A DNA stretch of 64,000 nt, taken from Candidatus Hodarchaeota archaeon. GTDB lineage: Archaea > Asgardarchaeota > Lokiarchaeia > Sigyniarchaeales > SOKP01. The translations under genes were made by a program, and so were the position numbers. Below, in pieces: positions 45,101-60,080 of this stretch. The notes under the pieces were generated by a model, which did not search any database, had not been told where the DNA came from, and was given only the letters and a program-made list of their open reading frames with translations. Where the stretch lies: the NCBI GenBank assembly GCA_048887225.1, contig JBHLJY010000002.1:128001-192000 (forward strand), in the 5' to 3' direction. The first letter of the stretch is position 1; the number at the start of each line of letters is the position of its first letter.

Positions 45101-45868
45101 GAATCATTTCACGAAATAATTGAAGAAGAATTGGAATTATGGAATAATTCTAAATTATCAATAGAAAAAAATTTTGAAACAGTCATTAATCGGATTGAAG
45201 AAGATATATTCATTAATAAACTTCAATTCTTCGTCAAAGCATTCAAAGATAATAAAGTTAGCATTAATTATTTATCTAAAGTACTGAATATGAAGTTAGA
45301 ACCTTTAAAAATGAAATTAATTACTTTCATTTCAAATTCAAAGCTTAAAGGAAAATTAGATTCCAATGCTGATATGTTCATTTTAGAAGAAGAGCTTGTT
45401 CCTAAGGAATTTTCAGTTAAAGGAATAAAAGGCGAAGAGATAAAAGAAGAAATTGATCCTATCAAGCGAGATATTCTAAATTTACGCTATTTAATCGTTA
45501 TTCAAAATAAAATGGGTGCTTCAGTGTTTAATAGAAAATTAGGTGAATGGTATATGGATTCCGAACTTATTGGAGGATTTTTGACAGCTATACAAGATTT
45601 TAGTTCAGAAATAAAGCAAAAGAAAATTCCAATAAAGAGAATGGAATATAAAGATTTTGAAATTATTTTAGAACAGGGAAAGTATACTTTTGCCGCATTA
45701 TTTATTGACGGTGAAGAGACAGACTGGATCCGTAATAAATTACAGTTATTTGTAGAAGAATTTGAAAAAGTCCACGAAAAAAGCCTTAAACATTGGAGTG
45801 GTGAACTTGGGTCTTTTAGAGATTCTAGTTATTTGATTGATAAAGTCTTCGAATTATATCGTTTATGA
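42128..45868 (+). CDS. Large multidomain protein: prenyltransferase-like alpha/alpha barrel, PCI-like winged helices, coiled coil, C-terminal longin-like domain
   Basis: GGY/GGF repeats with PDIWSTFYCIASL; wH-like segments ending IDGKI, LIGNI, LKGKLD; C-terminal LRYLIVI...GASVF...LIGGFLTAIQDFSSEI. Confidence 0.65.
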   Translation: MIFYLPWLPDFSYFEHKIKSPFNLDKALGFLKRKISDDEIFQSNEYLFWILILLSHIDKLDLVDEKAIKKYISGLKYHKGGYKFSDKFEEPDIWSTFYCIASLKLLELDDLIEDDNIEFIKKSQSLGSGGDGGFFHCSARNCYIKCDRKTSVKSSFFALSTLKLLEKLDEIDREQLIKYLKKSTLNNIDLIYQILSLKILNAIDNNILKKEIPIILSWQKLRSGFAIESKVPSIENNFWPLICLEFLKKLDLIDFGGVLGFIRSMEEFNGGFTEQYTSLSQNVPNIRSTAQALLCILFVWKRLIELIENEILIQLKDSSEIDLTLISDKFSIPVKFVKDIADWMITNKWIDGKIFNREKRFNSYFNRQNAITQEIINEIIGIFKNKPEQKRLNLIEFSKSFDFSNALERVKLVVNDLIINKFLIGNITTQKRETFLDNVLVLREYIRLNKPITTYVEIMDEKKRLEDAKDNLLNLHTKLTNFLRKSSVELKILIDQEKISDTKKKFHDNCEYVDTQIQKYEKLINQINSDHIFINSKLLNLKFDKYWPFINSSIEKCFSTFKSEIDEKIKKKEEFITERLEKARNQEAIKSVEKTLHDIEIELIQYGVQIKDFFQKNYTNHKKALSQIKTISDYIKKSDSSLRSKISKKSNIIKFDEFKKELNELKILWTKRRKESKKVIQFYQNIINKREELEKYIADNVSLLQKFSDDVNKQITSLIKKNEIEEASNILNKSIKEFTEMSSNKNEIFYVSVDQINQEISEFPKFSSDIKALWNKKLEDQKSKWANVTLALKKNLYLGKESDKKDELEQDLKENIGDIKDFVENIKKVTHELIKKKYITDAENKIRETYIKITKKIDNYNQKFKDFIKTSTTEFKSFRETVKDLVENWEKEKINLIILLNKARDELLNEIENTTSTEKKGELRELIKTYVSNLETNINQLKSSYNQFIQSGKRLSEFESKLQAEMFKVRDSLKLIDNQIKNFIKKESRIYESFHEIIEEELELWNNSKLSIEKNFETVINRIEEDIFINKLQFFVKAFKDNKVSINYLSKVLNMKLEPLKMKLITFISNSKLKGKLDSNADMFILEEELVPKEFSVKGIKGEEIKEEIDPIKRDILNLRYLIVIQNKMGASVFNRKLGEWYMDSELIGGFLTAIQDFSSEIKQKKIPIKRMEYKDFEIILEQGKYTFAALFIDGEETDWIRNKLQLFVEEFEKVHEKSLKHWSGELGSFRDSSYLIDKVFELYRL

Positions 45869-46021
45869 GGTATCCAAATTTTTAATTATTGCTTCTGTAA
45901 GAAAAACCTCAAATAAAAGATAACAAATATGTTAGTCTTTTGAGATCTTAAACTTTCTTTTATAAAGCAAAAAGGATTTATGATATTTATTATAATTGTT
46001 CTTTAAGAAAATAAGAAAATT

Positions 46022-47290
46022 TTGTGGAATTTCATGACGATTCAGGATTTGATGAAAAAAATTGGAGAAAATGCTCGAAATGCCGCATTTTTTTTAAAAA
46101 ACGTTTCAACAACTTCAAAAAATAATGCTTTATTACGAATGGCTAATGATTTAGAAAAGCAATCAGAAAAAATAATCGAAGCTAATAAAAAAGACTTAGA
46201 ACACGCTAAAAAAATCGGATTAGAGCAAGTAAAATTAGACCGTCTTATCCTAAATTCTGATAAAATTCATAAGATCGCAGAAGGATTGAGGGAAGTTGCA
46301 GCTCAACCAGATCCAATTAATGAAATCGTATCTATGTGGAGAAGGCCAAATGGAATGGATGTAGGCTTGATTAAAGTTCCATTGGGCGTAATTGGCATTA
46401 TATATGAATCACGACCAAATGTTACTGCTGATGCAGCAGGACTATGTTTAAAAGCTGGTAATGCTATAATATTACGTGGAGGGAGTGAGGCAATAAATTC
46501 TAATCTTCTAATTGCGGATATTTTACACGGAGCAGCAGTTAAAGAAGGTCTTCCAGAAAATTGCATTCAAATTATAAGAGATACAAATAGGGAATATGTA
46601 GGGGAGATGTTGAAATTAAAAGATTACATTGATGTAATAATTCCAAGAGGCGGGGAATCCTTAATTCAGAGGGTAATTCAAAATTCAACTGTACCGACTA
46701 TAGAAACTGGCATCGGAGTAGTTAGTATTTTCGTAAATTACGATGCAGATTTTAAGATGGCTAAAAGATTAATTATTAATTCTAAATGTTCTTATCCCGT
46801 AGTATGTAATGCTTTAGATAAAATTCTCGTTCACGAGAAAATTCAAGAAAAATTTATTCCATTTATTGTTGACGCGTTAATTGAAAATGGAGTTGAAGTT
46901 CGGGGCTGTGAAACAACTCAAAAATTAGTAGCAAATGTCATTGCCGCAACTGAAAAAGATTGGAGTACAGAATACTTATCTTTAAAAGTGTGTATTCGAG
47001 TTGTTAAAGATATAGATGAAGCTATAGCCCTTATTACTAAATACGATTCAAAACACACAGAATCAATAATTACAGAGAATTACGATGAGGCAAGGAAATT
47101 TTTATATGAAATAGATGCCGCTGCTGTTTACGTGAATGCCGCCACGCGATTAACTGATGGAGGTGTCTTTGGCCTAGGCGCCGAGATTGGTATTTCAACA
47201 CAAAAGCTACATGCTAGGGGTCCTATGGGAGTTAATCAATTAACCACTACAAAATTTATCATTTACGGTAATGGACAAATTAGAGAATAA
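46022..47290 (+). CDS. proA: Gamma-glutamyl phosphate reductase
   Basis: VPLGVIGIIYESRPNVT, GAEIGISTQKLHARGPMG. Confidence 0.96.
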   Translation: MWNFMTIQDLMKKIGENARNAAFFLKNVSTTSKNNALLRMANDLEKQSEKIIEANKKDLEHAKKIGLEQVKLDRLILNSDKIHKIAEGLREVAAQPDPINEIVSMWRRPNGMDVGLIKVPLGVIGIIYESRPNVTADAAGLCLKAGNAIILRGGSEAINSNLLIADILHGAAVKEGLPENCIQIIRDTNREYVGEMLKLKDYIDVIIPRGGESLIQRVIQNSTVPTIETGIGVVSIFVNYDADFKMAKRLIINSKCSYPVVCNALDKILVHEKIQEKFIPFIVDALIENGVEVRGCETTQKLVANVIAATEKDWSTEYLSLKVCIRVVKDIDEAIALITKYDSKHTESIITENYDEARKFLYEIDAAAVYVNAATRLTDGGVFGLGAEIGISTQKLHARGPMGVNQLTTTKFIIYGNGQIRE

Positions 47291-47318
47291 AAAATATTTA
47301 ATATTAGGTTAAAATACT

Positions 47319-47978
47319 ATGCTTGAGATTTTTATTTTCTCTTTTTTAATTGCTCTAACAGGAGCTTTATCTCCCGGCCCTGTTTTAACATTTACAATTT
47401 ATAAATCTCTTAATACTGAAAGAGGCTATTTGGCTGGATTTTTTATTATATTAGGGCATGCTATATTAGAACTCGTGCTCATAACACTCCTCTTATTAGG
47501 AGCGTATTTATTTTTTCAAAATATAATAATCTTAACTGTAATAGGCGTTGTTGGAGGAATTTTTCTAGTGATATTTGGTTGTTTGGTCATAAGAGATGTT
47601 TATAAAGGGAAGTATGAAATTGATTTTTCGGTTTCCGAAGACGATATTAAAGGATTTAAAGGAAATAGTTTTCTAGGGGGTATCTATATAAGCTTATCGA
47701 ATCCTTTTTTTTTAATGTGGTGGGCAATAATCGGTTTGAGTTTTATGCTTAACTTTAATATTAATTTTGACAATCCAATAGGGCTTCTTCTCTTTTATCT
47801 TGGACATGAATTTGGTGATTTTGTATGGTATATTCCGATTTCTATTTTTGCTTATTATGGAGGGAAATCAATCAATTTAAAAGTATATAAATATGTATTG
47901 ATTGGATGTGGACTTTTTATGATTAGTTTTGGACTTTACTTAGCAATAAATATAATTGTCTTCCCTCCAAAACTTTGA
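47319..47978 (+). CDS. LysE-family exporter
   Basis: ALSPGP, GH...E, SLSNPFF. Confidence 0.85.
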   Translation: MLEIFIFSFLIALTGALSPGPVLTFTIYKSLNTERGYLAGFFIILGHAILELVLITLLLLGAYLFFQNIIILTVIGVVGGIFLVIFGCLVIRDVYKGKYEIDFSVSEDDIKGFKGNSFLGGIYISLSNPFFLMWWAIIGLSFMLNFNINFDNPIGLLLFYLGHEFGDFVWYIPISIFAYYGGKSINLKVYKYVLIGCGLFMISFGLYLAINIIVFPPKL

Positions 47979-48051
47979 ATGTAATGATCGGATTGAAGGC
48001 ACCTGATTTAGCTTTATGAATAACAATAAACTCTTAAATTTATCCCTTTAA

Positions 48052-49209
48052 TTATCTTTTTCTTTTTTTAAACTCATTGATTACTTCCATGTATTCCCTA
48101 ACGGAAATAATTTTTGGATTTCTCCGAAAACTTGGTGGAATTGAGGCATCACATCGAGAACAAAGAGGCGAAGCTTTTGTCCAATCTTTAAATTCATCTG
48201 CATGAGAGGGATGTCTACAATTCGGACATAAAACAATTCCACGCCTCTGGTCAGAAAGTTGAGGAAGTTGAAAACAAAAAATACACTTAAAATCCTCTAA
48301 TGAGAGGATTCCAGCTTTTGGTTTAAGTTTTTCAAAGCTTGCGCTTACTGCAGATCTTGGCCTACGAACAATTGCTCTTGTGATACTAGTTGTAGAGGGT
48401 TTACGGGCTGTTATTCTTGAAGTAGTTGTAGTGGTTGATCTCTGTGTAGTTGTTCTTGAACTACTCTTAGTGGTAGCTGGTCGAGGTGTTGATCTTACTG
48501 GAGTGAAAGTTACACTTTCTAATCGCCTTCTTCGGCGAGCTATATAATCCTGAGAAACTTCAGGGACGACACGAGCAGACCCAAATATTGCATGTCTAAC
48601 AAATAAATATATTAAAAAAATACTAAAGGATAAAAGAATTATATCTAATTCATAAAAATAAGCACGCTCAATAACAATAAAAAAGTAATTAAGAATAACA
48701 TTAAAGTAAATTATATAAGAAAGAATTCCAATTAAAATTAAAATCGTATAAAATATAACGAATTTACGAGCATTAATAGACCTAGTGCGTATAATATATA
48801 CAATATCAAATTTTTTATAACATGCTCGAAGTGTAAATATTCCATACAGTATATAAGGTAAAGCAAAAATAATTGTCCATGGGCTAACATATAAAAATGG
48901 AACGAAATCCTCCAAGAGGTTATCACCTCCCAATCCAGTGAAATAACCCCAAAAATTAAAAAATAAACCGACCCCTAAAGGACATAATAAAAAGAAGGAG
49001 GTATTTTTGGGGGAGTTATATTCCTTATATTCTTTTCTTTTTTGAATAACTTTTATAGTAAAAACAATCCAGAGTCCAACCAACAGCCAAGAGAAGAATG
49101 CATTCAGTGATTTTAAAAAAAATACTAAATCAATTATAGCAATAGCTGAAAAAATTAATAAAATTATAGCTGTATGCTTTTTAATCAACTTTTTTAAACC
49201 ACCGTGCAT
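48052..49209 (-). CDS. Polytopic membrane protein with C-terminal RING-like finger (putative membrane E3 ligase)
   Basis: ~6 TM segments, T/S/R-rich linker, CIFC...CPNC..H...W...CSRC; last gene of the Ubl-E1-E2-JAMM run. Confidence 0.72.
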   Translation of the reverse strand: MHGGLKKLIKKHTAIILLIFSAIAIIDLVFFLKSLNAFFSWLLVGLWIVFTIKVIQKRKEYKEYNSPKNTSFFLLCPLGVGLFFNFWGYFTGLGGDNLLEDFVPFLYVSPWTIIFALPYILYGIFTLRACYKKFDIVYIIRTRSINARKFVIFYTILILIGILSYIIYFNVILNYFFIVIERAYFYELDIILLSFSIFLIYLFVRHAIFGSARVVPEVSQDYIARRRRRLESVTFTPVRSTPRPATTKSSSRTTTQRSTTTTTSRITARKPSTTSITRAIVRRPRSAVSASFEKLKPKAGILSLEDFKCIFCFQLPQLSDQRRGIVLCPNCRHPSHADEFKDWTKASPLCSRCDASIPPSFRRNPKIISVREYMEVINEFKKRKR

Positions 49210-49245
49210 TTATTCATAAAAATTGAAGTTAAAACAGTTTTATGT

Positions 49246-50043
49246 TTAATCCTCGTCGTATTCAAGATATGCAGGTTTTCCTTCTATTATTGGATTCATG
49301 AATTCTAAAATCTCGGGTAGCATCTTTACGTCCAAAGCTCCTTCTATAGTATATGGGATACGAAACCATTTCTTAGTTTTCAAGTCTGCTCTAAAAATTT
49401 CAAAGCCTACAGATGTACCATCAATCTGGTAGGGATCTATTACAAGAGCAACAGCTTTGCTCCATAATTTTTGGTACCTTGATTGAGTTCCAATATCTTC
49501 TGGACTCATCCAAGTTCCATAAGAGGGGTGGGAATGATACCAACCACATATAAATAATTTTTTTTTTTTAATATCCTTAAAAGCTCTAACATAATTATTG
49601 TAATTCTTAATTTCTGCATTGATTGCACTCCCATGTCCCATAGGATACGCATCTTCTATGTGGAGCATAGGCCCGTAATTATATTCTTTTCCCGCGAGAA
49701 GTCCAATAACCTCAATCCATTGTTCTTTTGGAATCTTATGATGAGCATATTTTAAAGCATGACTAGCAATTTTAAGAATTGCTTTAACAGTGATGCTTAT
49801 AGTTTCCTTATCCTCCAATTCCGTTATTGATATAGCTTCAGTTATGGGATCTCTCGTAGATTCAATTGGAGGTGAAGTAGTTTTATTTTTAAGTCGTGTA
49901 GCAATCTCCTCTGTTAAATCATTTTCCTCAGATATTAATTCGTTAAAGATTTCTTCAAGAATTTCTCTTTTTAATTTTTCCTTGATTTTCTTTTTTAAAT
50001 CTTCTTTAATTGAATCTTCACTTGATTCGTCGTTATTGGTCAT
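49246..50043 (-). CDS. JAMM/MPN+ metallo-isopeptidase (Rpn11/CSN5-like)
   Basis: EVIGLL, GWYHSHP....MSPED..TQ, VIDP. Confidence 0.93.
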   Translation of the reverse strand: MTNNDESSEDSIKEDLKKKIKEKLKREILEEIFNELISEENDLTEEIATRLKNKTTSPPIESTRDPITEAISITELEDKETISITVKAILKIASHALKYAHHKIPKEQWIEVIGLLAGKEYNYGPMLHIEDAYPMGHGSAINAEIKNYNNYVRAFKDIKKKKLFICGWYHSHPSYGTWMSPEDIGTQSRYQKLWSKAVALVIDPYQIDGTSVGFEIFRADLKTKKWFRIPYTIEGALDVKMLPEILEFMNPIIEGKPAYLEYDED

Positions 50044-50062
50044 TTAGTAGTCCTCTTTTAAA

Positions 50063-50590
50063 TTACCATTTCTTATTAGCATATTTTTTGACTAAAAACT
50101 TTACTTTTTTTTCAAATTTTTTAGGATCTCCCATTGCCTCCAGCGCAGCTTTTTTATTAAACACATCAGTAGGATTAAAATATTTCCCTCGAGTATTTAA
50201 CATTGCTGTTATTGCCTGTATTACTGTTGTAATAGTTTTTGAAGGAGACCAACCACCCTTCTTTCCTACATAGTTCGGATCTACAAGAGCAAGACAAATA
50301 TTTCTTTGACCAGGGTATTCGTGAGGTTTTGCCCAAAAATTTGGATGCCATATTGCTGTATGTAAACGTACATAAGGAGGATGATGTGGATAATTAGGAG
50401 GATATTTAATCTCAAGTTTAAACAAACCACCTTGATAAACTGTACTTTTAGGACCTTTTAATGTAACTGCAACATGATCTATACTTTTTTTTTTAGGATC
50501 GAATGGTTTCAATTGCGTAATTACACCACTTTTTAACATTTTTTTCAGAGCTGCAAAATCTTGCGAAATTCTTGTGCTTCTCAGACTCAT
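50063..50590 (-). CDS. E2 ubiquitin-conjugating enzyme
   Basis: GP..TVYQGGLF, YP..PP, WHPN, ICL, WSP. Confidence 0.93.
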   Translation of the reverse strand: MSLRSTRISQDFAALKKMLKSGVITQLKPFDPKKKSIDHVAVTLKGPKSTVYQGGLFKLEIKYPPNYPHHPPYVRLHTAIWHPNFWAKPHEYPGQRNICLALVDPNYVGKKGGWSPSKTITTVIQAITAMLNTRGKYFNPTDVFNKKAALEAMGDPKKFEKKVKFLVKKYANKKW

Positions 50591-50664
50591 ACTATTCTCA
50601 TACTCTTAAAAATTTTCAATTATAATGTGACTATATTATAATAATAATCGTTTAAATTCTTAAT

Positions 50665-51891
50665 CTAGAGGATTTTTAAATTTATAAAAATTTCACCACC
50701 TTCAAATCCAACTGCCGTAATCAATTCATCGTTTCTCAATTGATTTTGAATAGGTGTAAGATTAAGATCTATTTCATTTATATTCTCAAAATCCATTATT
50801 GTCAATGTTGGTTCTAAATCAGGATTCTTTACGAATCCCATTTTCATCAACGAATAGATAATATCCTCGCAACGTTCATTCTGAGAAATTTCTAAATTAA
50901 TCCGTTTAACATTATCGCCACACTGCAAACAATCTGGATTTCTTTTCTTTTCTATTGGATAAAATTTTAATGTCATCGCATTAAAAATTACATATGATTT
51001 GACTGGCTCTCCTAAGGCTTTATTTCCTTTTAACCAATGTAAAATTTTAATAGTTTCGTGTGATTGAATTGCTGATATCAGAGCGTTAATAGTAATAATA
51101 GCCGGCTCATGGAAATCGATTATTTTTATTATTTCATCTTTTGTAAAAAGTGGTAGAAAATTATGTTTTGTCGCAAGATCATTTGCATAATTTTGAATAA
51201 AATTAACATGTTTAATATTCTTGGGATCTGGATCTTGCTCATCGTTTTCTTCCTTAAAAGCCATATTTCCTTTAAAAATGCAATGAATTCTTTTTCTTGG
51301 AACTCCAACTACCGTACATGCCGCCATATCGTCCATCTCACCAACAGGAAGGGGGTTACATTCATAACAAGCGTTTTTATACGGAAAAACTGTGTATACA
51401 TGACCGTGATATCCCGCAACACCTCCATCGATAAGAGGTTTTTTAAATCGAATTGATTGAGCGTTCAAATTTAACCTAGCATTCATTGAATCTAATCCTC
51501 CAATAATGACATCAGCAGCTTTATATATTGCTGGATCAAGCCTTTCAAGTGAAGTATGGTATCCTTTAACTTTGATATTTGGATTTATTTTTTGCAACTT
51601 GGTAGCAGCCACAGTGGACTTTGGTTCACCCATTACTGCGTCGGCAAAAAGAATTTGCCTATTTAAATTTGAGTGTTCTATTATGTCTAAATCAACTAAA
51701 TCAAGATGGCCAACACCTAACATCGCCAAATTCTTAGCAATTTCACATCCAAGACCACCTACACCGGCAATCAAAACTCGAGAATTTTTAACTAATTTCT
51801 GAGACCATCCTTCAAGACGAAATTGTCTATCGTATAAGTCTCTTTCTTCCGCTGTGAGTTCTTTGCTAAAAAAATCTGAATCTCTTTCCAA
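50665..51891 (-). CDS. E1 ubiquitin-like activating enzyme (Uba2/Uba3-like)
   Basis: YDRQ, GVGGLGCE, SNLNRQ, CYEC, catalytic-Cys region CTVVGVPRKRIHC, NPDCLQC. Confidence 0.93.
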   Translation of the reverse strand: MERDSDFFSKELTAEERDLYDRQFRLEGWSQKLVKNSRVLIAGVGGLGCEIAKNLAMLGVGHLDLVDLDIIEHSNLNRQILFADAVMGEPKSTVAATKLQKINPNIKVKGYHTSLERLDPAIYKAADVIIGGLDSMNARLNLNAQSIRFKKPLIDGGVAGYHGHVYTVFPYKNACYECNPLPVGEMDDMAACTVVGVPRKRIHCIFKGNMAFKEENDEQDPDPKNIKHVNFIQNYANDLATKHNFLPLFTKDEIIKIIDFHEPAIITINALISAIQSHETIKILHWLKGNKALGEPVKSYVIFNAMTLKFYPIEKKRNPDCLQCGDNVKRINLEISQNERCEDIIYSLMKMGFVKNPDLEPTLTIMDFENINEIDLNLTPIQNQLRNDELITAVGFEGGEIFINLKIL

Positions 51892-51983
51892 TTTTCACAC
51901 CTATTAAATATACTGATACTTTATAAAAAATCTACTATTAAATATTAAAAAAATTAAAAAAAAAAAACAAATTAATTAAATGT

Positions 51984-52340
51984 TTACCCAGCGGTGCTTG
52001 CAGGAATAAGCAAAACCTCATCTCCATCGTCGACACTATATTGGTTTAAAGGTGCATTTTCTTCCATTGTTACACCTCCAGAAGATAGGTGAAAATCGTT
52101 TGGATCTAACCCAAAAATATTCCCAACTGTTTGTTTGATTGCGCTTACTGGATTAGCATCGTCAACAAGTAATTTTTGTCTTTTTTCACCAGGACCAATT
52201 GTTGATAAAAAAAAGAGGTTTATTTTTCTTCCTCCTGCCTCGACGGCAGCAGCAGGAGTTTTAGATTTCATTGGAGATTTCTCTTCAGGCTCTTCTTCTA
52301 AATCCTCATCAAATTCGTCTTCAAAACCCATAATTATCAA
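51984..52340 (-). CDS. Ubiquitin-like beta-grasp protein ending -STAG, with acidic N-terminal extension (likely start ATG 52331)
   Basis: VSAIKQTV, PLNQYSVDDGDEVLLIPASTAG*; immediately upstream of the E1. Confidence 0.85.
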   Translation of the reverse strand: MIIMGFEDEFDEDLEEEPEEKSPMKSKTPAAAVEAGGRKINLFFLSTIGPGEKRQKLLVDDANPVSAIKQTVGNIFGLDPNDFHLSSGGVTMEENAPLNQYSVDDGDEVLLIPASTAG

Positions 52341-52522
52341 GCTCCATATTTTTCAAAATTATTATATATAAAATTAATTATTTGCCTTAAGTATTTAATT
52401 ATTTTCTTTCAATAATTTATTAGAAAAGAATTTAGTTAAAATTTTTATATATTTTTTATAGAATAATAATATATGGAAGGTAATTATTTAATTAATCAAA
52501 TTAATTTGTTAGAGTTAATAAA

Positions 52523-53368
52523 ATGAAAGATAAAACTCCTCCAAAATATAATATTAAGGATAAAACGCCAAGTAAAGAAGAAACTGTTGTTCCAAGTAAA
52601 ACGCTGCTTAAGAAGTTGAGAGATGAGCAGATAAATTTAGAAAAAGAAAAGATTGAATGGGAGGCTGTAATTAAAAAAGTTGAAGGATATCAAGTATCTT
52701 TGAAAGATCTGGAAAAAAAGAGGAAAATTCTTGAAAATGATATTAGAAATCTTTTAAATGAGAAAGGCAAGTTAAATCGAGATTTAAACGATTTAAAAAA
52801 GGGGATATCTGACGAAGACAAACGACTTCAAGCTGAAGAACGTAATATTGAGGATACTAAAGATAAACTGCTTAAACAAAATGATGAAATAAATAAGAAA
52901 ATGAGAAATTTGAAAAGAAGAGAAAATGAATTAAAGAAACAGGAGAGATATTTGGAAAACGAAAAAAAATACTTAGAAAGGGATCTAAAAAATGAGCAAA
53001 TTCTTTTAAAAGAGATTAGAAGTAAAATTCCAGGATTAGAAAAAAGAAAAAATTCATTAGAAAACAAGGTTAGAATCCTAGAAAATAAAATGCAAGTGTT
53101 AAAAAACGATACAAAAAGAATCGAAAATGAAAAGAATAGAATAGAATCATACATCCAAAATGAGAAAAGCAAAATAGAAAAAGAAAAAATTAATATTCAA
53201 AACGATAAGAATAATATCAAACGCGAAAGAAATAAATTAGCAAGCGAAAAAGAAAAATTAAGAAGCGATCGTAGTAAATTAGAGGTGGAAATTAGAAAAA
53301 TTAAATCTGTACCTAAACAAAAAATGTTAAAACAAAAAATAAAAACTAAAACTCCACCAAGAGAATGA
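52523..53368 (+). CDS. Highly charged coiled-coil protein with terminal KTPxK/R motifs
   Basis: K/E/N-rich heptads; KDKTPPK, KDKTPSK, KTKTPPR. Confidence 0.7.
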   Translation: MKDKTPPKYNIKDKTPSKEETVVPSKTLLKKLRDEQINLEKEKIEWEAVIKKVEGYQVSLKDLEKKRKILENDIRNLLNEKGKLNRDLNDLKKGISDEDKRLQAEERNIEDTKDKLLKQNDEINKKMRNLKRRENELKKQERYLENEKKYLERDLKNEQILLKEIRSKIPGLEKRKNSLENKVRILENKMQVLKNDTKRIENEKNRIESYIQNEKSKIEKEKINIQNDKNNIKRERNKLASEKEKLRSDRSKLEVEIRKIKSVPKQKMLKQKIKTKTPPRE

Positions 53369-53430
53369 TCTCAATTCAATTTTATTGCAATATCCAGATA
53401 ATATGCAAATAAAATTAAATGTGATTGCTT

Positions 53431-55506
53431 TTAATCCTCCTTATATACATCTTCTTGATCAGTATAAATACCTGCGTTTGGATCGAGAAATTGGTTTTGG
53501 CACGCAGGACAGGAGTTATATTTTGATAACCAAAATGCTACGCATAAATAATGATAAATTGCTTCACAAAAAGGACATTTTATTATCTGTTCTTTTGCAA
53601 AATCAAATTTTTTATGACAAACTCCACATTTTATTTTGTCTGAGGTGATCCCTTCTCTAACTTTTACTCTCTCAGATAATGTTATTTCTAAATTAGTTAA
53701 TTCTGTTCGGTATAGATCTATTTCATTACTTAAATTCTTAACTCTTGATTTAATTTCAATTATTCTCTCGTTTAATTCCTCTTCTGTTAATTTATCGAAT
53801 AAAAAGGTTGATAACGCAAAATTTAATGGCATAGTATCAATGGTATCTTTTTGGTCTGTAATTTCTGTTATGCGTTCAAGCATTAAATCTTCTTCCTCAA
53901 TTAGCTCCTTAAAATTTTTAAATAACTTATTAAGTATCATAGACAATAAAAAGGTTAATTGCTGTTTTTTAAAATTGAAATTATCTTCCCATTGCTTAAT
54001 AATTTGATAGATATCGATGTCCTTTTCTTTATATAAATCTATTTTTTTATAAACATCATCCTTAATTTTCTGAATCCTAGATTTATACTTACTAAGAATT
54101 TCACGAATTTGTTTTAATTGAGGAAACTCTTCCCGTACTATTAAAGCTGTTTCATCTTGATATCTACTCATTAAATCATTAACTTCCGAAATCTTTTCAT
54201 AAATAAAATTCCTAACATGATCACGCAATCGTTCTTTTCTAACTGATTTTAAATAATATAAATACTCTTCTTTCCTTCGTGTTATTTCAGTAAGAACATT
54301 ATCAATAATTTTTTCATATGAACTTGTTATTTCCCTGTATGGTTCCAAAGAAGATTCAAAATCTCCGAAATGACGACTTAATTCCTCTAATAACGAATAA
54401 AAGATATCAACTTTTTCAGAATAATACTTAATGACATTTTTAAACTCGTCGTACTCTTTCAAATCGCTAATTGTAGCTTGATATTTCTTTTCTAAACCAC
54501 TTAAGTAATAATCTGCTATTTGGGGTAAATATTGGCTAATTTTTTGTTCTAAAACAGTTTTTAAATTTATTTTCTTTTTACCCTCTTCTAATGTAAAATT
54601 CTTATCTAACTCATTTATTTCAACTAAAATTGCCTTAAATTTATTTTCGATTAGAGATTTAACAATTGGACGAATGAATTTTTTTAATTTCTGAATAATC
54701 TCTTTTCTATCTACAATATTTATATATTCATCGTTATCCTTTCCCTCTTTAAATTCTTCAATTATTGTGTTCTGAAATAGAAGAAAAATTAAATCAGAAT
54801 AAATATCAATTTTCCCGTCTTGTTTTTTGTTATAAAATTGATATATATCAGCAAAATATAATGTTATATATACTCCCTTTTTTTTCTTTTTCTTTTTTTT
54901 ACTAACCTCTTGATTAGAATCTTCAATGAAATCGTAAAGTTCCTTTATTTCATTCCATTTTGTTAACGCACTTGGAAACTCGTTAATCTTTAAGTTTAAA
55001 TTTTTTATTTTATTTGCTTCAATCCAAATATACGAAATATTATCATAAAGACCCTCAAACTTATATTGAGATTTCTCAAGTTCTGAATAAAGTTCATTAA
55101 ATTCATCAATAAGACCTTGAGTTGTTATTAAAAACTCATCTAAAAATGAATTGTGTTTCAAAAATCTCTTAATATTTCGACAATTTAATTTAAGATTTAG
55201 TAAATTATTTGAATAGAGCTTAATCTCTTTTAAAATTCCTAATTTTAAATTATGAAAATTATATTTTTCAGAAATGTCTTTAGGTGTTAAATATATGGCA
55301 GCAAAATCTCTTATTTCTTCAAAATAAATTGAGTAATAATCGAGAATTTTTCTTTGGAATTTTGTCTTTAAAAAATCATCAATCTCAGGTGAATCTGGCT
55401 TTTCTTTCTTAAATTTATCTATACTTCTTTTAATATCTAATATATCTTCTTTAGAAAATCCTTTTATTTCCCGAACATCGTTAAAAACATTATCAGTTAA
55501 TTTCAA
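53431..55506 (-). CDS. Helical/coiled-coil protein with C-terminal C4HC3 RING-like finger (putative E3)
   Basis: CGVC-x13-CPFC-x4-HYLC-x3-W-x6-CPAC. Confidence 0.78.
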   Translation of the reverse strand: MKLTDNVFNDVREIKGFSKEDILDIKRSIDKFKKEKPDSPEIDDFLKTKFQRKILDYYSIYFEEIRDFAAIYLTPKDISEKYNFHNLKLGILKEIKLYSNNLLNLKLNCRNIKRFLKHNSFLDEFLITTQGLIDEFNELYSELEKSQYKFEGLYDNISYIWIEANKIKNLNLKINEFPSALTKWNEIKELYDFIEDSNQEVSKKKKKKKKGVYITLYFADIYQFYNKKQDGKIDIYSDLIFLLFQNTIIEEFKEGKDNDEYINIVDRKEIIQKLKKFIRPIVKSLIENKFKAILVEINELDKNFTLEEGKKKINLKTVLEQKISQYLPQIADYYLSGLEKKYQATISDLKEYDEFKNVIKYYSEKVDIFYSLLEELSRHFGDFESSLEPYREITSSYEKIIDNVLTEITRRKEEYLYYLKSVRKERLRDHVRNFIYEKISEVNDLMSRYQDETALIVREEFPQLKQIREILSKYKSRIQKIKDDVYKKIDLYKEKDIDIYQIIKQWEDNFNFKKQQLTFLLSMILNKLFKNFKELIEEEDLMLERITEITDQKDTIDTMPLNFALSTFLFDKLTEEELNERIIEIKSRVKNLSNEIDLYRTELTNLEITLSERVKVREGITSDKIKCGVCHKKFDFAKEQIIKCPFCEAIYHYLCVAFWLSKYNSCPACQNQFLDPNAGIYTDQEDVYKED

Positions 55507-55622
55507 AATAAAGACACCTTAATCAGCAAGATGTTCTATAGCAAAATTGCCGTTAGTTAGTCTAGTAGTGATAAAATGGAAAAATTTTAAATTTTTCTAT
55601 TCAAAAAAAAGCGTTTAAAAAA

Positions 55623-56240
55623 TTATTCCCCAAGTTCTTTAATTTCAATGTGTTTTTCTATGGCTCCATCTTTAGTTATCGTTAAAATATCAATCCCATC
55701 CCCCGACATTGCATCTCGTGCTATCGCTGCTCTAATTGCTTTTTCTACTAATGCTTCACCCGCCTCAACGCTCATATCAGGTTTATATTCAGCTTCGAGG
55801 ATTCCTATTGATAGCAGCATTCCTGTGCCGGCAGTACCATAATCGTCTGGCATTAGCGAGCCAATTGCGTCAAGTGTGTAGAGTTTAGGACCATCTTTGT
55901 CCATTCCCGCAATTACTAAATTAGTATATAGTGGAAACATTTTTCGTGAATATAAATAATTTGAAACTAATTTCCCCATACTCTTTGTTGATATCCTCTT
56001 CCCAGCATCTAATAAATATAAATTAGCTTGTGCCTTCATAATCTTTACTAAAATTTGCCAGTCTCCGATAAGACCATACGCAGCTAAGCCAATATTATCT
56101 GTTATCTTAAATACTTTTCTCGTTGATTTGTTTGCTACTGTATATCCCCACGTCGCTCTATTATCGTTGCCAAGGACAACTCCATCAAGACATTTAATTG
56201 CTACTCCACATGCGCCAGGTACAATAATTTGCTGTGCCAT
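55623..56240 (-). CDS. psmB: Proteasome beta subunit lacking catalytic Thr1
   Basis: DGVVLGNDNRAT, RKVFKI, RDAMSG; N-terminus PG|ACG in place of G|TTT. Confidence 0.93.
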   Translation of the reverse strand: MAQQIIVPGACGVAIKCLDGVVLGNDNRATWGYTVANKSTRKVFKITDNIGLAAYGLIGDWQILVKIMKAQANLYLLDAGKRISTKSMGKLVSNYLYSRKMFPLYTNLVIAGMDKDGPKLYTLDAIGSLMPDDYGTAGTGMLLSIGILEAEYKPDMSVEAGEALVEKAIRAAIARDAMSGDGIDILTITKDGAIEKHIEIKELGE

Positions 56241-57106
56241 TTTTTTCCACTCTTATGTGTTCAATATCATAAAGTTATTGAAAACATATAAGGTTAATCT
56301 TAATACTCTAAAGTTGTAGAGACTTTTGTGAGTTTGATTTAATTTCTCCAATAATGGTTTGATTAAATCAAGATCATTATTTAATTAATAAAAAAACAAG
56401 TCAAAAGGGCAATTTCTAAGAGAAGAAGAGCCACAAGCGAATTCTCTGATTAAGATATTCATAAATTTTACCTGCAAAAATTAGTAATTTCATTGGAAGC
56501 ATCAATATATCGAAGAATATAACAATATATTAGGCAATTAATAATCTTAAAATCTCATTTACCATTTATTTAAAAGGTCTAATCTTTAGTTTTACTGCTC
56601 AATTTAGTACTTACTCATTGTCTTAGATCAAATTACAAAATATCACAATCATTTCCCTTATTTCTCATTTAGAAATTATTTTTACTTATCATTTCAATCA
56701 TAACATATTTTCAATGATCATAATATTAATGGTATGATATTTTATTACGAATGAAATAATTTTATTCAAAATTTTTTAATTCTCCATAAAATCATATAAA
56801 AACTATAATTAGATATAAATTTATCATAATCAAGATCCCTATTAGTTTTATTGTAAAAAATTTATGTCATCTTTTTAAATTGATCATTGATCGAATAATG
56901 ACAGAGTTTTTTTTAATTATATAGAGGTATCAAAATTTTTGTCGAAATTTTTTTAAGTAACTTCTTCATATTCTTCACGAATATACATAATATTTAAATA
57001 GCACTTCGATTATAATAATAACTAAGAACTTTACAAAAATAATTAAAAAAAAATTAAAAACCTAAATTTTAAAAAAAATTTTACAATTTTAAAGGAGGAA
57101 TAAAAA

Positions 57107-57325
57107 ATGGCTAAAAAGAAACATAGCTTTGCATGGAGTCCAATTCGAAGACTCATGAAGCAACAAGGAGCTAGCATTGTAGCGAGAAATGCAGTCGATT
57201 TATTAATCGATCATTTAGAAAAAACTGCCACTGGTTTAACTGAACAAGCTCGAGCCTTTACCATGCATGCTAACAGAAAGAAAATTACCAAGAATGATCT
57301 CTTATTATCGATTAAATACAAATAG
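57107..57325 (+). CDS. Archaeal histone
   Basis: SPIRRLMKQQGA, HANRKKITKND; upstream AGGAGG ribosome-binding site. Confidence 0.92.
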   Translation: MAKKKHSFAWSPIRRLMKQQGASIVARNAVDLLIDHLEKTATGLTEQARAFTMHANRKKITKNDLLLSIKYK

Positions 57326-57527
57326 AGATATTTCGTGAGAATTAGCTTTAATTTTATTTATCTTATTTTTTTTTTCTTTTATACTTAATTGAAGTTTCTT
57401 AAAGTTATTTCAAAATTAAATAAAAAAAAAATAAGGTTCGATAACAATCGTAAAAAGAGATTTTTACTAATTTTTATTTACTACTTATGTTATATTATGC
57501 TTTGTAGATTTACACTTATCCATAAAG

Positions 57528-57803
57528 TTAATAGCGATAATTTCGTCTACCACCTTTATTATATGGATTATATTGTCGAGGAGCTTTTTCGATAACGACA
57601 ACATTACTCGCTTGTGGCCCTTTTTGACCTTCAACAATATCAAACTCAACCTTGTCATTTTCATTTAGCGCTTTATATTCTTCATCCCCCGCCAATGCTG
57701 AGTAATGAACAAATACATCATTCCCCTCTTCAGAGCTTATAAATCCATAGCCTTTTCGGCTATTAAACCATTTTACTGTTCCTTTTACCAAATTTAAAAC
57801 CAA
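57528..57803 (-). CDS. cspA: Cold-shock domain protein with R/G/Y-rich tail
   Basis: GTVKWFN, KGYGFI, DVFVHYS, KGPQA. Confidence 0.93.
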
Positions 57804-57920
57804 ATTTCAATTTTTGAAAAATTAATTTAATTCTCAAAGAATTAATAATGAAAAGAATCTAAGGAAAATAAACCTTTCTATTCAACTTTATTCATTTATG
57901 AATTTTTATTAACCTCGAGA

Positions 57921-57961
57921 GATTAATTCAGCGGTTATCACGTCAATTTGCTGAATTAATC
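57921..57961. promoter_or_regulatory. Perfect 12-bp inverted repeat with 17-nt spacer between divergent csp and enoyl-CoA hydratase genes
   Basis: GATTAATTCAGC (57921-57932) and GCTGAATTAATC (57950-57961); function inferred, not shown. Confidence 0.55.
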
Positions 57962-58069
57962 CATTAGGAAAAAACATTTTTTCCGTCCTTTTTTCGATAT
58001 AAATATTAAAAAGGATTTGAGTTTTAATCTAATTTATTAAAACTATAAAATAAAAATGGAGGTAGAAAT

Positions 58070-58879
58070 ATGGCTTACAAGAATATTTTATATGAAAAGG
58101 AAAACCATGTTGTAATAATAACAATTAATCGTCCAGAAGTCCGTAATTGCATCAATAATGAAACTAATTTGGAATTACAAAATGCTTGGAAGGCTTTCCG
58201 TGATGACGATGATGCTTTTGTTGCTATATACACTGGAGCCGGAGATATCGCCTTTTCTGCTGGATGGGATCTTAAAGACGCCGCAGCGCTTGATACAATG
58301 GCCAACTATGATCAATTTCGAGTTGCTGTTCATAATATTGAAGGGTGGTGTGGATATACTAAAAAATTTGATATATTTAAACCAATTATAGCTGCTGTAA
58401 ATGGTTATACATATGCCGCTGGTCTTGAAAATTGTCTTCTGGCTGACATACGCATTGCTTCTGAAAATGCTAAATTTGGTGCTACAGAAAGGAGATGGAA
58501 TATTGTTGCTGGTGATGGTCTATGTGTGAGATTACCACTTGTAGTTGGATATGCTCGAGCTTTAGAACTCATTATAACAGGTAAAGTAATTGACGCCCAA
58601 GAAGCATATCGTATAGGTTTGGTAAATGAAGTGGTTCCTCTTGAGAAATTAATGGAAAGAGCAAAAGAATTGGCACTATCGATATGCAAATTGCCCCAAG
58701 GTTCAATTCGAACTGATAAGGAGTCTGTAATCCGTTCTATTGGTAGAACAGTCGAAGAGAGGACTTTTATTGAAACCGAAGGAGTATTATCGATGTTTCT
58801 AAGGGGCGACAAACATACTGAAGGTGCTAAAGCTTTTCTCCAGAAAAGAGGTCCTGAATGGAAGGGACATGGATTATAA
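58070..58879 (+). CDS. Enoyl-CoA hydratase/isomerase (crotonase family)
   Basis: INRPEVRN, FSAGWDLK, KPIIAAVNG, IGLVNEVVP. Confidence 0.92.
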   Translation: MAYKNILYEKENHVVIITINRPEVRNCINNETNLELQNAWKAFRDDDDAFVAIYTGAGDIAFSAGWDLKDAAALDTMANYDQFRVAVHNIEGWCGYTKKFDIFKPIIAAVNGYTYAAGLENCLLADIRIASENAKFGATERRWNIVAGDGLCVRLPLVVGYARALELIITGKVIDAQEAYRIGLVNEVVPLEKLMERAKELALSICKLPQGSIRTDKESVIRSIGRTVEERTFIETEGVLSMFLRGDKHTEGAKAFLQKRGPEWKGHGL

Positions 58880-58889
58880 ATTATATCCC

Positions 58890-60080
58890 TTATAATTCTT
58901 TATATTCGTCGAGAATCTTATTTGCAACATCTTTAGTATTACCATACTTTCCTTCCTTTCTATATTTTGGTGGTACGGCATCTCTAGGCAAAGTTTTCCA
59001 ATTTTTTTCTACATCAAGCCCTCCAGCTAAAGTATTTTCTAATGCTTTCATTAACTTTTTCGATTCATTTTCAAACCCTAAATAATCAAGCATCATTGTA
59101 GCAGAAATTATGGTAGCAGCAGGATTTGCAATTTTCTTACCGGCTATATCAGGAGCAGAACCATGAGTAGGTTCGAAATATGGGATTTTTGAACCATAAA
59201 CACCCGAGCCAGCAACTCCTAATCCTCCCACTATTTGAGCGGCTTCATCACTCAATATATCACCCATCATATTTGGAAGAACAATAGTATCATGGTAATT
59301 AGGAAATCTAATCAATCTAGCTGCAAAATCATCAACAATATATGTCTCAACTTTTATTTCAGGGAATTCATTCTCAGCTATTTTTCTAATTCTCTTTATG
59401 AACATGCCATCTTGGGTGCGAAATATATTCGGCTTACATACAATTTCGAGCAAGCCTTTTCCAATTCCCTCATTCTTGCGTTTCATACACATTTCACATG
59501 CAACATGCCCTACCCTGTCTGTTGCTTGAGGGGATACTATTCTTAAACTGTATATTGCTTTTTCAGTCCATCTTTCAATATCTGGCTTATAAATTAGTCC
59601 CTTTTTAATCAACTTTGTTAATTTTCCTTCTTTACCAACCGCTGCATAGCTGCCCTGTGTACATTCTCTTATAAAGGTATAATCTATATTTTCAACTAAA
59701 TCTAGTTTGAGATTAGTGTTCATTCCTTTAAAGTATTTAATAGGTCTGATATTGGCATAATTTCCAAGACCCCATCGTAAATATGCAATTACTTGGATAG
59801 CAGTTTCATGGGTAGCCCCAAATAAAACAGCATCACTTTTATCTACTGCTTTCCTTGTTTCTGGGGGAAACGCATTCCCGTGAGTTTCCATGGCACTCTC
59901 TCCACATGGCATTTTTTTTATTTCTAATCCATTAATGTTCATTCCTTCTAAAACGAGAACTGTCGCATTAACCACTGTTGGACCTATTCCATCACCCCCT
60001 AAGGCTGTGACAATCTTTTTTGGTTTATGAATATTAGGACTTTTTAGCACGCTTTTATATTCTCCTGTCATTATTTTCAC
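58890..60080 (-). CDS. Isocitrate/isopropylmalate dehydrogenase family
   Basis: GDGIGP, NMMGDILSD, EPTHGSAPDIAGK..ANP. Confidence 0.88.
   Translation of the reverse strand: MKIMTGEYKSVLKSPNIHKPKKIVTALGGDGIGPTVVNATVLVLEGMNINGLEIKKMPCGESAMETHGNAFPPETRKAVDKSDAVLFGATHETAIQVIAYLRWGLGNYANIRPIKYFKGMNTNLKLDLVENIDYTFIRECTQGSYAAVGKEGKLTKLIKKGLIYKPDIERWTEKAIYSLRIVSPQATDRVGHVACEMCMKRKNEGIGKGLLEIVCKPNIFRTQDGMFIKRIRKIAENEFPEIKVETYIVDDFAARLIRFPNYHDTIVLPNMMGDILSDEAAQIVGGLGVAGSGVYGSKIPYFEPTHGSAPDIAGKKIANPAATIISATMMLDYLGFENESKKLMKALENTLAGGLDVEKNWKTLPRDAVPPKYRKEGKYGNTKDVANKILDEYKEL

Follow-up and report, generated by a model that had tools for sequence, protein, structure and literature searches.

A widespread ubiquitin-like cassette of Asgard archaea with a membrane-built ligase candidate, and its lineage-specific adjacency to a proteasome beta/RING gene pair

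Eukaryote-like ubiquitylation is known in Asgard archaea, and the published systems use small soluble RING ligases and Gly-Gly tags. The locus described here lies in a 64-kb window (the whole stretch of DNA that was analysed) from a Loki-type Asgard archaeon, and combines a ubiquitin-like modifier (Ubl), its enzymes, a polytopic membrane RING-like protein, a second RING protein and a proteasome beta subunit. It therefore raises the question of whether these genes form a single pathway for tagging, untagging and degrading membrane proteins, analogous to ERAD, as an initial annotation of the sequence had proposed. In this study, we report computational evidence which makes it reasonably probable that two units are present, namely a self-contained Ubl cassette with a membrane E3 (48002-53410) and a family-specific beta/RING pair (53431-56240), and that they are merely adjacent in the genus of the window.

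All of the ORFs annotated initially (8/8) were confirmed in position and strand. The minus-strand run at 48052-52340 encodes the Ubl, E1, E2, JAMM and polytopic membrane RING-like proteins, with intergenic gaps of 92, 74, 19 and 36 bp as calculated from the coordinates, so that the co-oriented five-gene order and spacing first described were reproduced. The single opposite-strand gene reported to precede the RING and proteasome beta genes was also found, and separates the operon from both. The features are as follows.

51984..52340, minus strand: Ubl modifier (Pfam ubiquitin, 5e-5; profile and AF2/Foldseek matches)
50665..51891, minus strand: E1-like activating enzyme, UBA3/SAE2-like, 408 aa (ThiF, 1e-57)
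50063..50590, minus strand: E2 conjugating enzyme, 175 aa (UQ_con, 4e-25)
49246..50043, minus strand: JAMM/MPN+ isopeptidase, Rpn11/CSN5-like, 265 aa (JAB, 8e-13)
48052..49209, minus strand: six-TM membrane protein, candidate membrane E3, 385 aa (AF2, structure matches, conserved ligands)
52523..53368, plus strand: divergent coiled-coil protein, 281 aa (coiled-coil-type matches only)
48002..53410, no strand: indel block holding the five cassette genes and the coiled-coil gene (blastn against the closest relative, genome G172)
53431..55506, minus strand: 691-aa protein with a C-terminal C4HC3 RING (zf-RING_2, 1e-4)
55623..56240, minus strand: non-catalytic 20S proteasome beta subunit, 205 aa (Proteasome, 2e-49)

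The ThiF, UQ_con, JAB and Proteasome matches were above the curated Pfam cut-offs, and the Ubiquitin and zf-RING_2 matches were below them. A 1246-aa prenyltransferase/PCI protein encoded near the cassette was considered as a conserved partner and was dropped, as it had no homologue in any of the fetched loci.

The Ubl ORF encodes 118 aa from TTG 52340 or 115 aa from ATG 52331. The ATG is probably the true start, because a GGAG lies 11 nt upstream of it and the start of the orthologues agrees with it. In the protein, a beta-grasp core is preceded by an acidic N-terminal arm, which is disordered and bears two K-x-P motifs, and is followed by the mature C-terminus -IPASTAG, where the ORF terminates (...STAG-stop) without a di-Gly and without a tail. 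A T13 run follows the Ubl gene and might attenuate read-through. A profile of the family, searched against PDB, matched ubiquitin with the tail in register, G118 corresponding to G76 and A117 to G75. The AF2 model of the core had a pLDDT >90, and its top Foldseek match was the Caldiarchaeum ubiquitin (6fno_D, 6e-7). The Ubl is a true ubiquitin homologue. Across 23 orthologues, IPxSTAG and the K-x-P motifs were invariant, and some of the orthologues carried short C-terminal tails. With -STAG invariant and Ala at the position of ubiquitin Gly75, the family has no Gly-Gly end, either exposed directly or after processing. The non-GG modifier, listed initially among the unusual features of this locus, is a phylum-wide trait of the Ubl family. 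The single terminal Gly had also prompted a reading of the tag as UFM1; this identity was rejected, since the fold and profile searches matched ubiquitin, ISG15 and NEDD8, and is also countered by the canonical HPN motif of the E2. The genome of the window additionally encodes a separate small ubiquitin, ending in ...AGG plus a 3-residue tail and adjoining a short E1-like gene, as well as a second E1/E2 pair elsewhere.

Analysis of the three enzymes revealed intact catalytic motifs. In the E1, the adenylation domain is accompanied by a catalytic Cys192 and by zinc motifs of the CxxC type at 175 and 321; its best PDB matches were SAE2 and UBA3, and Cys192 aligned to their catalytic-Cys motif CT(I/V)xxxP. 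The E2 carries HPN at 82-84 and Cys99, with conserved insertions flanking the Cys on both sides, and was most similar in PDB to Cdc34/UBE2R- and UBE2G-type E2s; among its 22 orthologues, HPN and Cys99 were invariant and the mean column identity was 76%. The JAMM protein retains the E...HxHx7Sx2D motif (E111, H170), and its best match in PDB was the Rpn11 homologue of Caldiarchaeum (6fjv, 1.5e-16), ahead of Rpn11 and CSN5. Of the hallmarks of an archaeal ubiquitylation operon of the Caldiarchaeum/Asgard type, the ubiquitin fold, the E1 adenylation domain and catalytic Cys, the E2 HPN/Cys and an intact Rpn11-like JAMM metal site are present in the cassette.

The only RING-like gene within the cassette encodes the 385-aa six-TM protein, and a small soluble RING is absent from it. 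Residues 248-282, behind the six helices (N-in, C-in), form a disordered S/T/R linker, which leads to a RING/U-box-like zinc domain at the C-terminus (about 287-385); this domain was placed in the cytoplasm on the basis of the positive-inside rule, with 20 Lys and Arg residues in the cytoplasmic loops versus 2 in the outer loops. The AF2 model of the protein had a pLDDT of 86. Structure matches of the C-terminal domain included 3lrq (Z 7.6), Ring1b (6.9), UHRF1, CHIP, TRIM21/25 and the RING of HRD1. Residues 300-385 aligned over their full length to U-box/RING domains (72-89 residues, Z 6-7.6), consistent with a cross-brace fold, the comparison being one of a predicted model with middling Z. 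Pfam detected zf-RING_16 alone, at 0.07, and across the family no Pfam RING model reached its cut-off, zf-RING_16 being found weakly in 24 of 52 members.

The family of the membrane protein comprised 167 representatives. The residues C309, Ile310, C312, C328, C331, H336, W343, C350 and C353 were invariant. The sixth ligand position is occupied by E339, conserved at 90% or more, and by Ala in one orthologue. Seven invariant Cys/His were thus found in place of the eight zinc ligands of a complete RING; the first zinc site consists of Cys, Cys, His and Glu or Ala, and one zinc site is incomplete. The degenerate site suits an explanation in which the membrane protein is an anchor, receptor or substrate rather than a ligase, its zinc domain docking the cascade while the E2 itself directs conjugation by reading K-x-P, as Ubc9 does with its own consensus. 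The nearest zinc-finger likenesses of the domain also include the structural fingers of GATOR2 and IFT proteins, which serve in assembly and not in catalysis. The two conserved insertions around the E2 active site, and the invariant Lys and Pro in the disordered arms of both the Ubl and the coiled-coil protein, fit the same explanation. Against it, Ile310 and Trp343 are invariant, and they occupy the canonical E2-contact positions of c-Cbl-type RINGs.

A complex of the E2 and the RING-like domain (residues 283-385) was also predicted. It scored 0.59 versus 0.00 for the best control, which amounts to weak support. In the calibration, 58 of 80 solved complexes attained this mark, as did 2 of 110 mismatches, but among these, scores of 0.60 or lower came from just 7 of the 80 solved complexes and from both of the mismatches. 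The contacts agreed fully between runs (100%), with a partner pLDDT of 88. The pass may reflect likeness to the well-represented solved RING-E2 structures. We judge a non-ligase role to be unlikely, and the membrane protein to be the probable E3 of the cassette.

Relatives of the membrane domain were sought in several ways, and none of known function emerged. An exhaustive HMMER search found none outside the family, barring a few short matches that were confined to the TM region and lacked a RING (such as the paralogue in families f13 and f16); a PDB profile search returned low-complexity and TM noise only; a protein-atlas feature search gave no usable match, and the corresponding fold search gave nothing beyond the protein's own Asgard cluster and RING-only matches. 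A Hrd1/Doa10-like membrane domain was likewise not matched in the PDB profile, Foldseek, VIA-align wide or exhaustive HMMER searches. As the domain was not folded on its own, this absence of matches does not prove a new fold. In the full-text literature searched, no membrane RING was described for any Ubl operon of Asgard archaea.

Comparison of related genomes showed that the cassette genes keep together. The order Ubl-E1-E2-JAMM-membrane protein was kept in every locus that was long enough among 20 loci from 12 GTDB families of the phylum, and in the NCBI MAG loci inspected, and the E2-JAMM-membrane protein part was intact even where Ubl-E1 had relocated. The synteny check proposed with the initial annotation therefore bore out the five-gene order, and the membrane RING gene, whose separation from E1/E2 in relatives would have spoken against a joint function, was instead found tightly linked to them. 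In the family of the window, the membrane protein and the cassette E2 were both present in 116 genomes and both absent from 16; in the two discordant genomes, the genes lay at contig ends. Families lacking the cassette E2 gave weak, RING-only matches to the membrane protein. The Ubl cassette is widespread in Asgard archaea, and its sole ligase candidate is membrane-built.

The boundaries of the indel block were revealed by blastn of window positions 40001-60000 against G172, the closest relative (approximately 94% nucleotide identity). G172 lacks exactly 48002-53410 and is otherwise collinear: the flanks 40001-48001 and 53411-56314 aligned at about 94-95% identity, and about 60 bp stand in G172 in place of the 5.4-kb block. 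No obvious repeats were seen when the junctions were inspected by eye.

The beta subunit and the 691-aa RING protein lie outside this block. In the beta subunit, the Thr1 position is occupied by Ala10, while the Asp and Lys positions of the triad are kept; its N-terminus reads PG-A-C-G-V, versus G-TTTVG in the other beta subunit of the genome (C1:428188-428736). All of the orthologues (11/11) have Ala at this position, and the subunit is accordingly not a catalytic beta. Its best PDB match was a Sulfolobus beta chain (6z46_H, 4e-46), presumably the structural, inactive beta of the two-beta 20S proteasome of Sulfolobus acidocaldarius; unlike that chain, the beta described here immediately precedes a 691-aa RING gene on the same strand throughout one Asgard family. 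The 691-aa RING protein was present in 128 of 134 genomes of the window's family, and wherever its gene occurred among the family-f1 loci examined, the beta gene lay next to it. In 12 loci from the genera g1 (G172), g2, g7, g11, g12 and g13, the pair stood beside LysE, and the stretches fetched contained no cassette gene; in a single-contig genome it was 750 kb from the cassette, and it is kept in genus g2, from which Ubl, cassette E2 and membrane RING are all missing. The pair is far from the cassette in most genera, and abuts it in g1, in g6 and in a single g13 genome. Because of the cassette-free loci beside LysE, the persistence in g2 and the clean 5.4-kb indel in G172, beta and the 691-aa RING are a separate two-gene unit, whose adjacency to the cassette is lineage-specific. 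The proteasome subunit first thought to be linked into the same pathway thus proved to be non-catalytic, separable and part of a conserved pair of its own. No paper describing this pairing was found, and a dead beta paired with a large RING protein is a lead in its own right.

These results weigh on the ERAD-like reading of the whole 8-kb locus, according to which the membrane RING would tag membrane proteins for extraction and degradation by a proteasome containing the neighbouring beta, with the soluble RING helping. The bundle of TM helices with a linker and a C-terminal RING does recall membrane quality-control ligases, the E2 has its nearest solved relatives among the Cdc34/UBE2R- and UBE2G-type enzymes, which carry an insertion after the Cys, the deubiquitinase is Rpn11-like, and the two units do abut in g1, g6 and one g13 genome. 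However, that juxtaposition is lineage-specific, as the 12 cassette-free loci from six genera, the 750-kb separation, g2 and the G172 indel indicate; the beta is non-catalytic; no Cdc48, Derlin or Hrd3-like gene occurs in any conserved neighbourhood; no likeness to Hrd1 was found for the membrane domain; and cultured relatives have no internal organelles (PMC7015854). We consider this reading highly improbable, and the ERAD analogy is a speculation at the level of architecture. Of the tag/untag/degrade pathway originally envisaged for membrane substrates, the complete tag/untag cascade with a membrane RING-like protein stands, and the link to degradation is unsupported, the beta being separable and non-catalytic. 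This negative result matters, since the proto-ERAD appearance came from a lineage-specific juxtaposition with the proteasome.

The remaining gene of the indel block, that of the coiled-coil protein, is co-inherited with the cassette. It adjoins the Ubl gene in families f1, f2, f3, f4, f7 and f28, and K-x-P-rich analogues stand next to the cassette in f13 and f16. The protein has K-T-P motifs at both ends, the terminal motifs being conserved. The motif is rare: the ORFs, 1.05 M residues in all, contain it 35 times, with 3 of these copies inside the coiled-coil protein, and it is common to this protein and the N-terminal arm of the Ubl. Only two other ORFs carry it twice (glycosyltransferase-like and ParA-like), and both look unrelated. 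The coiled-coil protein is a candidate partner or substrate of the cassette.

Two further readings involve this gene. Tentatively, and at low probability, the cassette could be a consensus-site membrane modification system, in which the E2 would recognise the acceptor, the K-x-P Lys, through its conserved insertions at the active site, in the manner of Ubc9 and its consensus site. Chains of the tag would grow on its N-terminal arm, and the system would bring its own substrate in the coiled-coil protein, whose assembly or regulation at the membrane would fall to the six-helix RING protein. If true, a pre-eukaryotic, SUMO-like logic would have been joined to a membrane E3. Similarly doubtful is a signal for sorting or assembly instead of degradation, by which the membrane E3 would mark membrane or membrane-proximal proteins for ESCRT-type sorting or vesicle formation or, by modifying the coiled-coil K-T-P protein, would build or control a membrane-associated structure. 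Asgard ubiquitin does bind Asgard ESCRT-I/UEV proteins (PMC9192718; bioRxiv 10.1101/2023.07.25.550441), and the one additional partner that accompanies the cassette phylum-wide is a protein with K-x-P motifs, not a protease; yet the conserved neighbourhood of the cassette has no ESCRT gene, and the ESCRT-linked ubiquitins of those reports end in Gly-Gly, unlike the Ubl.

For the preferred reading of a self-contained cassette beside a separate beta/RING pair, the gene identities, folds, catalytic motifs, topology, synteny, co-occurrence and indel were computed as described above. Everything biochemical, from the individual steps and the ligase function to the substrates and what becomes of tagged proteins, is inferred, and the steps would run as follows. 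The E1 would adenylate the terminal Gly of the Ubl (at its Ala-Gly end) and load the Ubl onto Cys192, from which it would be handed to Cys99 of the E2. The RING/U-box-like domain of the six-helix protein would then recruit E2~Ubl to the cytoplasmic face of the membrane, acting as E3, with the coiled-coil K-T-P protein as a dedicated partner or substrate. The JAMM protein would remove the tag, and would trim the short tails of some Ubl orthologues. A membrane-only ligase candidate across many Asgard families would date membrane-anchored ubiquitin-type tagging before eukaryotes, and the cassette offers a compact six-protein system for asking what such tagging first did.

Among known systems, the eukaryotic ligases Hrd1/gp78, RNF121-type, TMEM129 and MARCH/Doa10 similarly have a multi-pass membrane domain holding a cytosolic RING that recruits a soluble E2. 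Their number of helices and their pattern of ligands are different, the cassette has no linked ERAD partners and no similarity of the membrane domains in sequence or fold was detected, so the likeness is one of analogy, with homology not demonstrated. The Asgard ubiquitin-ESCRT systems, in which an E1/E2/RING cascade ubiquitylates UEV-Vps23 in vitro, also use E1, E2 and a RING E3 on a ubiquitin homologue and are often clustered (PMC9192718; bioRxiv 10.1101/2023.07.25.550441), but they have Gly-Gly ubiquitins, soluble RING E3s and ESCRT neighbours, none of which is found in the window's cassette. The operon of Candidatus Caldiarchaeum subterraneum (Rpn11, Ub, E2-like, E1-like and small RING), which has been reconstituted in vitro (PMC5654768, PMC6043591), is likewise an operonic, eukaryote-like Ub/E1/E2/RING/JAMM set, and its ubiquitin and Rpn11 are the best matches of the Ubl and the JAMM protein. 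Its E3 is a small soluble RING, whereas that proposed here is a six-helix membrane RING-like protein with Glu as sixth ligand; its tag carries Gly-Gly behind a processed tail, whereas that of the window ends in Ala-Gly and is encoded mature. Compared with the Caldiarchaeum operon, the window's cassette has in addition an acidic K-x-P N-terminal arm on the tag and an accompanying K-T-P coiled-coil gene.

The source genome (G000) is an Asgard assembly of 3.27 Mb, 98% complete, with a GC content of about 30%, and the window corresponds to G000:C2:128001-192000. The initial annotation described a five-gene minus-strand operon with gaps of 92, 74, 19 and 36 bp between its genes. The locus is real, and the ORF listing confirmed this layout, with all eight genes of the region placed as follows:

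48052-49209, minus strand: membrane protein, 385 aa, with almost no match in the Pfam scan
49246-50043, minus strand: JAMM protein, 265 aa (Pfam JAB above cut-off)
50063-50590, minus strand: E2, 175 aa (Pfam UQ_con above cut-off)
50665-51891, minus strand: E1, 408 aa (Pfam ThiF above cut-off)
51984-52340, minus strand: ubiquitin-like protein (Ubl), 118 aa (Pfam ubiquitin sub-threshold)
52523-53368, plus strand, opposite to the cassette enzymes: coiled-coil protein, 281 aa
53431-55506, minus strand: RING protein, 691 aa (Pfam RING sub-threshold)
55623-56240, minus strand: proteasome beta subunit, 205 aa (Pfam Proteasome above cut-off)

Synteny was assessed in 20 loci fetched from across the phylum, representing 12 GTDB families. 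The five cassette genes were adjacent in every locus of sufficient length, so that the linkage of the membrane RING gene to E1 and E2 holds in relatives; in one family Ubl-E1 was displaced by about 2 kb, with the E2-JAMM-membrane block intact. The same order was found in three NCBI MAG loci. Within the window's family, the membrane protein and the cassette-type E2 were both present in 116 genomes, both absent from 16 and discordant in 2 (the surviving gene lying at a contig end in both), counts that are descriptive and carry no statistical test, as the kin are not independent. Co-loss of the two genes was seen in separate genera. All five genomes of genus g2, two of them 100% complete, gave no membrane-protein match and retained as their sole E2 a paralogue 43-45% identical; four of them also yielded no Ubl. 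In families without the cassette E2, the membrane-protein query gave weak, RING-only matches.

Three genomes filed under other families carry cassettes (G307:C4:694385-696844, G308:C16:8249-10720 and G309:C186:2982-5399) whose E2 is 75-81% identical to that of the window. The cassette is absent from the smaller genus-mates G304-G306 (1.7-2.1 Mb) of two such carriers; G307 and G308 measure 3.6-4.2 Mb, about twice their genus-mates' size, with 8-11% contamination, which suggests mixed bins or gene transfer. Also in the window, at 42128-45868, lies the gene for a protein of 1246 aa in which a prenyltransferase alpha-alpha toroid (3e-16) is joined to a PCI domain (1e-6), as found in scaffold proteins of the proteasome lid, CSN and eIF3; it was linked to the cassette in no fetched relative.

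The initial annotation joined the cassette and a linked 20S subunit into one pathway. Alignment of archaeal beta subunits showed that the window's subunit has Ala10 at the Thr1 place (P-G-A-C-G-V), with the Asp and Lys positions retained, and Ala stood at this position in 11 of 11 orthologues examined; the other beta of the genome (C1:428188-428736) reads G-TTTVG. With Ala in place of Thr1, the window's subunit is non-catalytic. The 691-aa RING protein was present in 128 of the 134 genomes of the family, and its gene was adjacent to and co-oriented with the beta gene in all 10 loci (genera g2, g7, g11, g12 and g13) that were chosen because the pair stands apart from the cassette. LysE adjoins the pair in eight of these, and the two g2 loci had no LysE match. 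Two further loci repeat the arrangement of the pair away from the cassette, and in one genome assembled as a single contig 750 kb separates the pair from the cassette. Only in genera g1 and g6 and in one g13 genome is the cassette found between LysE and the pair; genus g2 has the pair but no cassette. In G172, the closest relative (nucleotide identity about 94%), the sequence is collinear with the window at 40001-48001 and 53411-56314, and about 60 bp stand where the window has 48002-53410, a block of exactly the five cassette genes plus the divergent coiled-coil gene; the membrane protein and cassette-type E2 were not found elsewhere in this genome (82% complete). Because the beta subunit is non-catalytic, the pair is separable from the cassette and the indel takes in the cassette and the coiled-coil gene but not the pair, the view of one locus and one pathway fails, and the window holds two units that happen to adjoin in this lineage.

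In a sister family the inactive Thr1-to-Ala beta is conserved with no RING gene adjoining (L094:6347-6970 and L095:7548-8171); judged from these sequences, the dead beta thus predates its association with the 691-aa RING protein. About 45 kb past the window end, at G000:C2:237464-242863, lies another E2 of 169 aa, which shares 43% identity with that of the cassette and adjoins a second E1 of 526 aa and a helical protein of 843 aa. As this is the type of E2 kept by genomes without the cassette, it may be the E2 that works with the 691-aa RING protein.

The membrane protein family is compact, comprising 367 clusters at 90% identity. No cluster has a Pfam domain, and all those with a source name are labelled as an Asgard MAG "hypothetical protein". 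When 1.84 billion representatives were searched exhaustively with HMMER, 167 matched. Alignment of 52 members showed C309, C312, C328, C331, H336, W343, C350 and C353 to be invariant and D338 and E339 to be at least 90% conserved. The resulting pattern, C-x2-C...C-x2-C-x4-H-x2-E...W...C-x2-C, has the C4HC3 spacing of the 691-aa RING, with Glu at the sixth ligand place (Ala in one orthologue). In the AF2 model (pLDDT 86), six membrane helices are connected by a disordered linker (248-282) to a C-terminal domain modelled with confidence, which in a structure search with the predicted model matched U-box/RING domains full-length (best 3lrq, Z 7.6; then Ring1b, UHRF1, CHIP, TRIM21/25, Rad18 and the HRD1 RING). 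When sequences were scanned singly against Pfam, 24 of the 52 members matched zf-RING_16 weakly. The membrane domain, searched as part of the whole protein, gave no specific match in PDB profile, fold and protein-atlas searches. Even loops carry 20 Lys and Arg residues versus 2 on odd loops, which points to an N-in, C-in topology and would place the RING on the cytoplasmic side. Complex prediction for RING binding to the E2, called for earlier, scored residues 283-385 with the cassette E2 at 0.59 versus 0.00 for the best control; this lends weak support to binding, and the score could also stem from a resemblance to RING-E2 complexes of solved structure.

In two distant Asgard families, the gene immediately downstream of that for the membrane RING protein encodes a RING-less membrane protein of about 195 aa (L055:4502-5086, L057:3615-4202 and L056:8914-9507), 35% identical between the families. 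It is a probable paralogue of the membrane domain of the RING protein (hhalign 72.7%, E 3e-5, invariant P-Y helix included), which hints at a hetero-oligomeric membrane module.

E1 residues 31-352 align to SAE2 and to UBA3; Cys192 falls in the catalytic-Cys motif, and the two CxxC zinc motifs are retained. The E2 has HPN and Cys99, with conserved insertions either side of the Cys, and its closest solved structures are Cdc34/UBE2R- and UBE2G-type enzymes. The JAMM metal motif is intact, the nearest proteins being the Caldiarchaeum Rpn11 homologue, Rpn11 and CSN5.

Profile comparison matched the Ubl family to ubiquitin with the tail in register, Gly118 and Ala117 corresponding to Gly76 and Gly75. 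In the AF2 model, whose top structural match is Caldiarchaeum ubiquitin, a beta-grasp core (pLDDT >90) follows a disordered arm (residues 1-37), in which the orthologue alignment shows an acidic F-D-E-D-L stretch and two K-x-P motifs that are invariant. Across 23 orthologues from many families the IP-x-STAG end is invariant, usually with the stop codon directly after it and sometimes with one or two extra residues. The likely start is the ATG at 52331, with GGAG 11 nt upstream and an equivalent Met opening the orthologues. A T13 run lies after the Ubl stop codon and before the E1 gene (within 51935-51983), and is a possible partial terminator of archaeal type, which would yield Ubl transcript in excess over the enzyme transcripts; the E1 gene starts at a TTG, with AGGTG 7 nt upstream.

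Close to the cassette in relatives, the same type of Ubl is fused C-terminally to large proteins, unrelated and 296-585 aa long (L061:2213-3964, L064:15672-17414, L069:12770-13660 and L074:9691-11448); its end reads STAG or SRAG, followed in some cases by a short tail. Such a protein with a free activatable end could be conjugated itself to targets, or be a precursor trimmed by JAMM. A second, small ubiquitin-like gene at G000:C3:62319-63433 ends in ATQAGG plus a three-residue tail (FLI) and adjoins an E1-like gene (288 aa); this Gly-Gly system is distinct from the Ala-Gly cassette of the same genome.

In no fewer than six families the coiled-coil gene accompanies the cassette, and it falls within the G172 indel. 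Its orthologues start with K-x-P-P-K-Y...K-T-P, and most end in I-(R/K)-(S/T)-K-T-P or a close K-x-P variant, in agreement with the K-T-P motifs of the Ubl arm. Two distant families have a K-x-P-rich protein of 212-262 aa beside the cassette instead. The ORFs of G000, 1.05 million residues in all, contain 35 copies of the motif, three of them within the coiled-coil protein. The invariant Lys and Pro common to the disordered arms point to a putative docking or acceptor motif.

The best-supported reading of the cassette, and a plausible one, is a ubiquitin-like conjugation and deconjugation cycle at the cytoplasmic face of the cell membrane, which the membrane-embedded RING-like E3 would localise there and in which the coiled-coil protein would take part as a dedicated partner. 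The ERAD-like system of the initial annotation, with its proteasome, was not supported: no Cdc48, Derlin or Hrd3-type gene was linked to the cassette, no Hrd1 likeness was detected in the membrane domain, the cassette had no conserved proteasome link, and internal organelles are absent in cultured relatives (PMC7015854). No evidence thus ties the system to ERAD.

No description of the membrane RING, the Ala-Gly tag or the K-T-P partner was found in the literature searched, which covered the key papers incompletely. Among characterised systems the nearest is the Caldiarchaeum operon, whose RING is small and soluble and whose tag is Gly-Gly (PMC5654768, PMC6043591), and the Asgard ubiquitin-ESCRT systems likewise have Gly-Gly ubiquitins and soluble RINGs (PMC9192718; bioRxiv 10.1101/2023.07.25.550441). 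The cassette differs from these systems in its Ala-Gly tag and in carrying its RING-like domain on a membrane protein.
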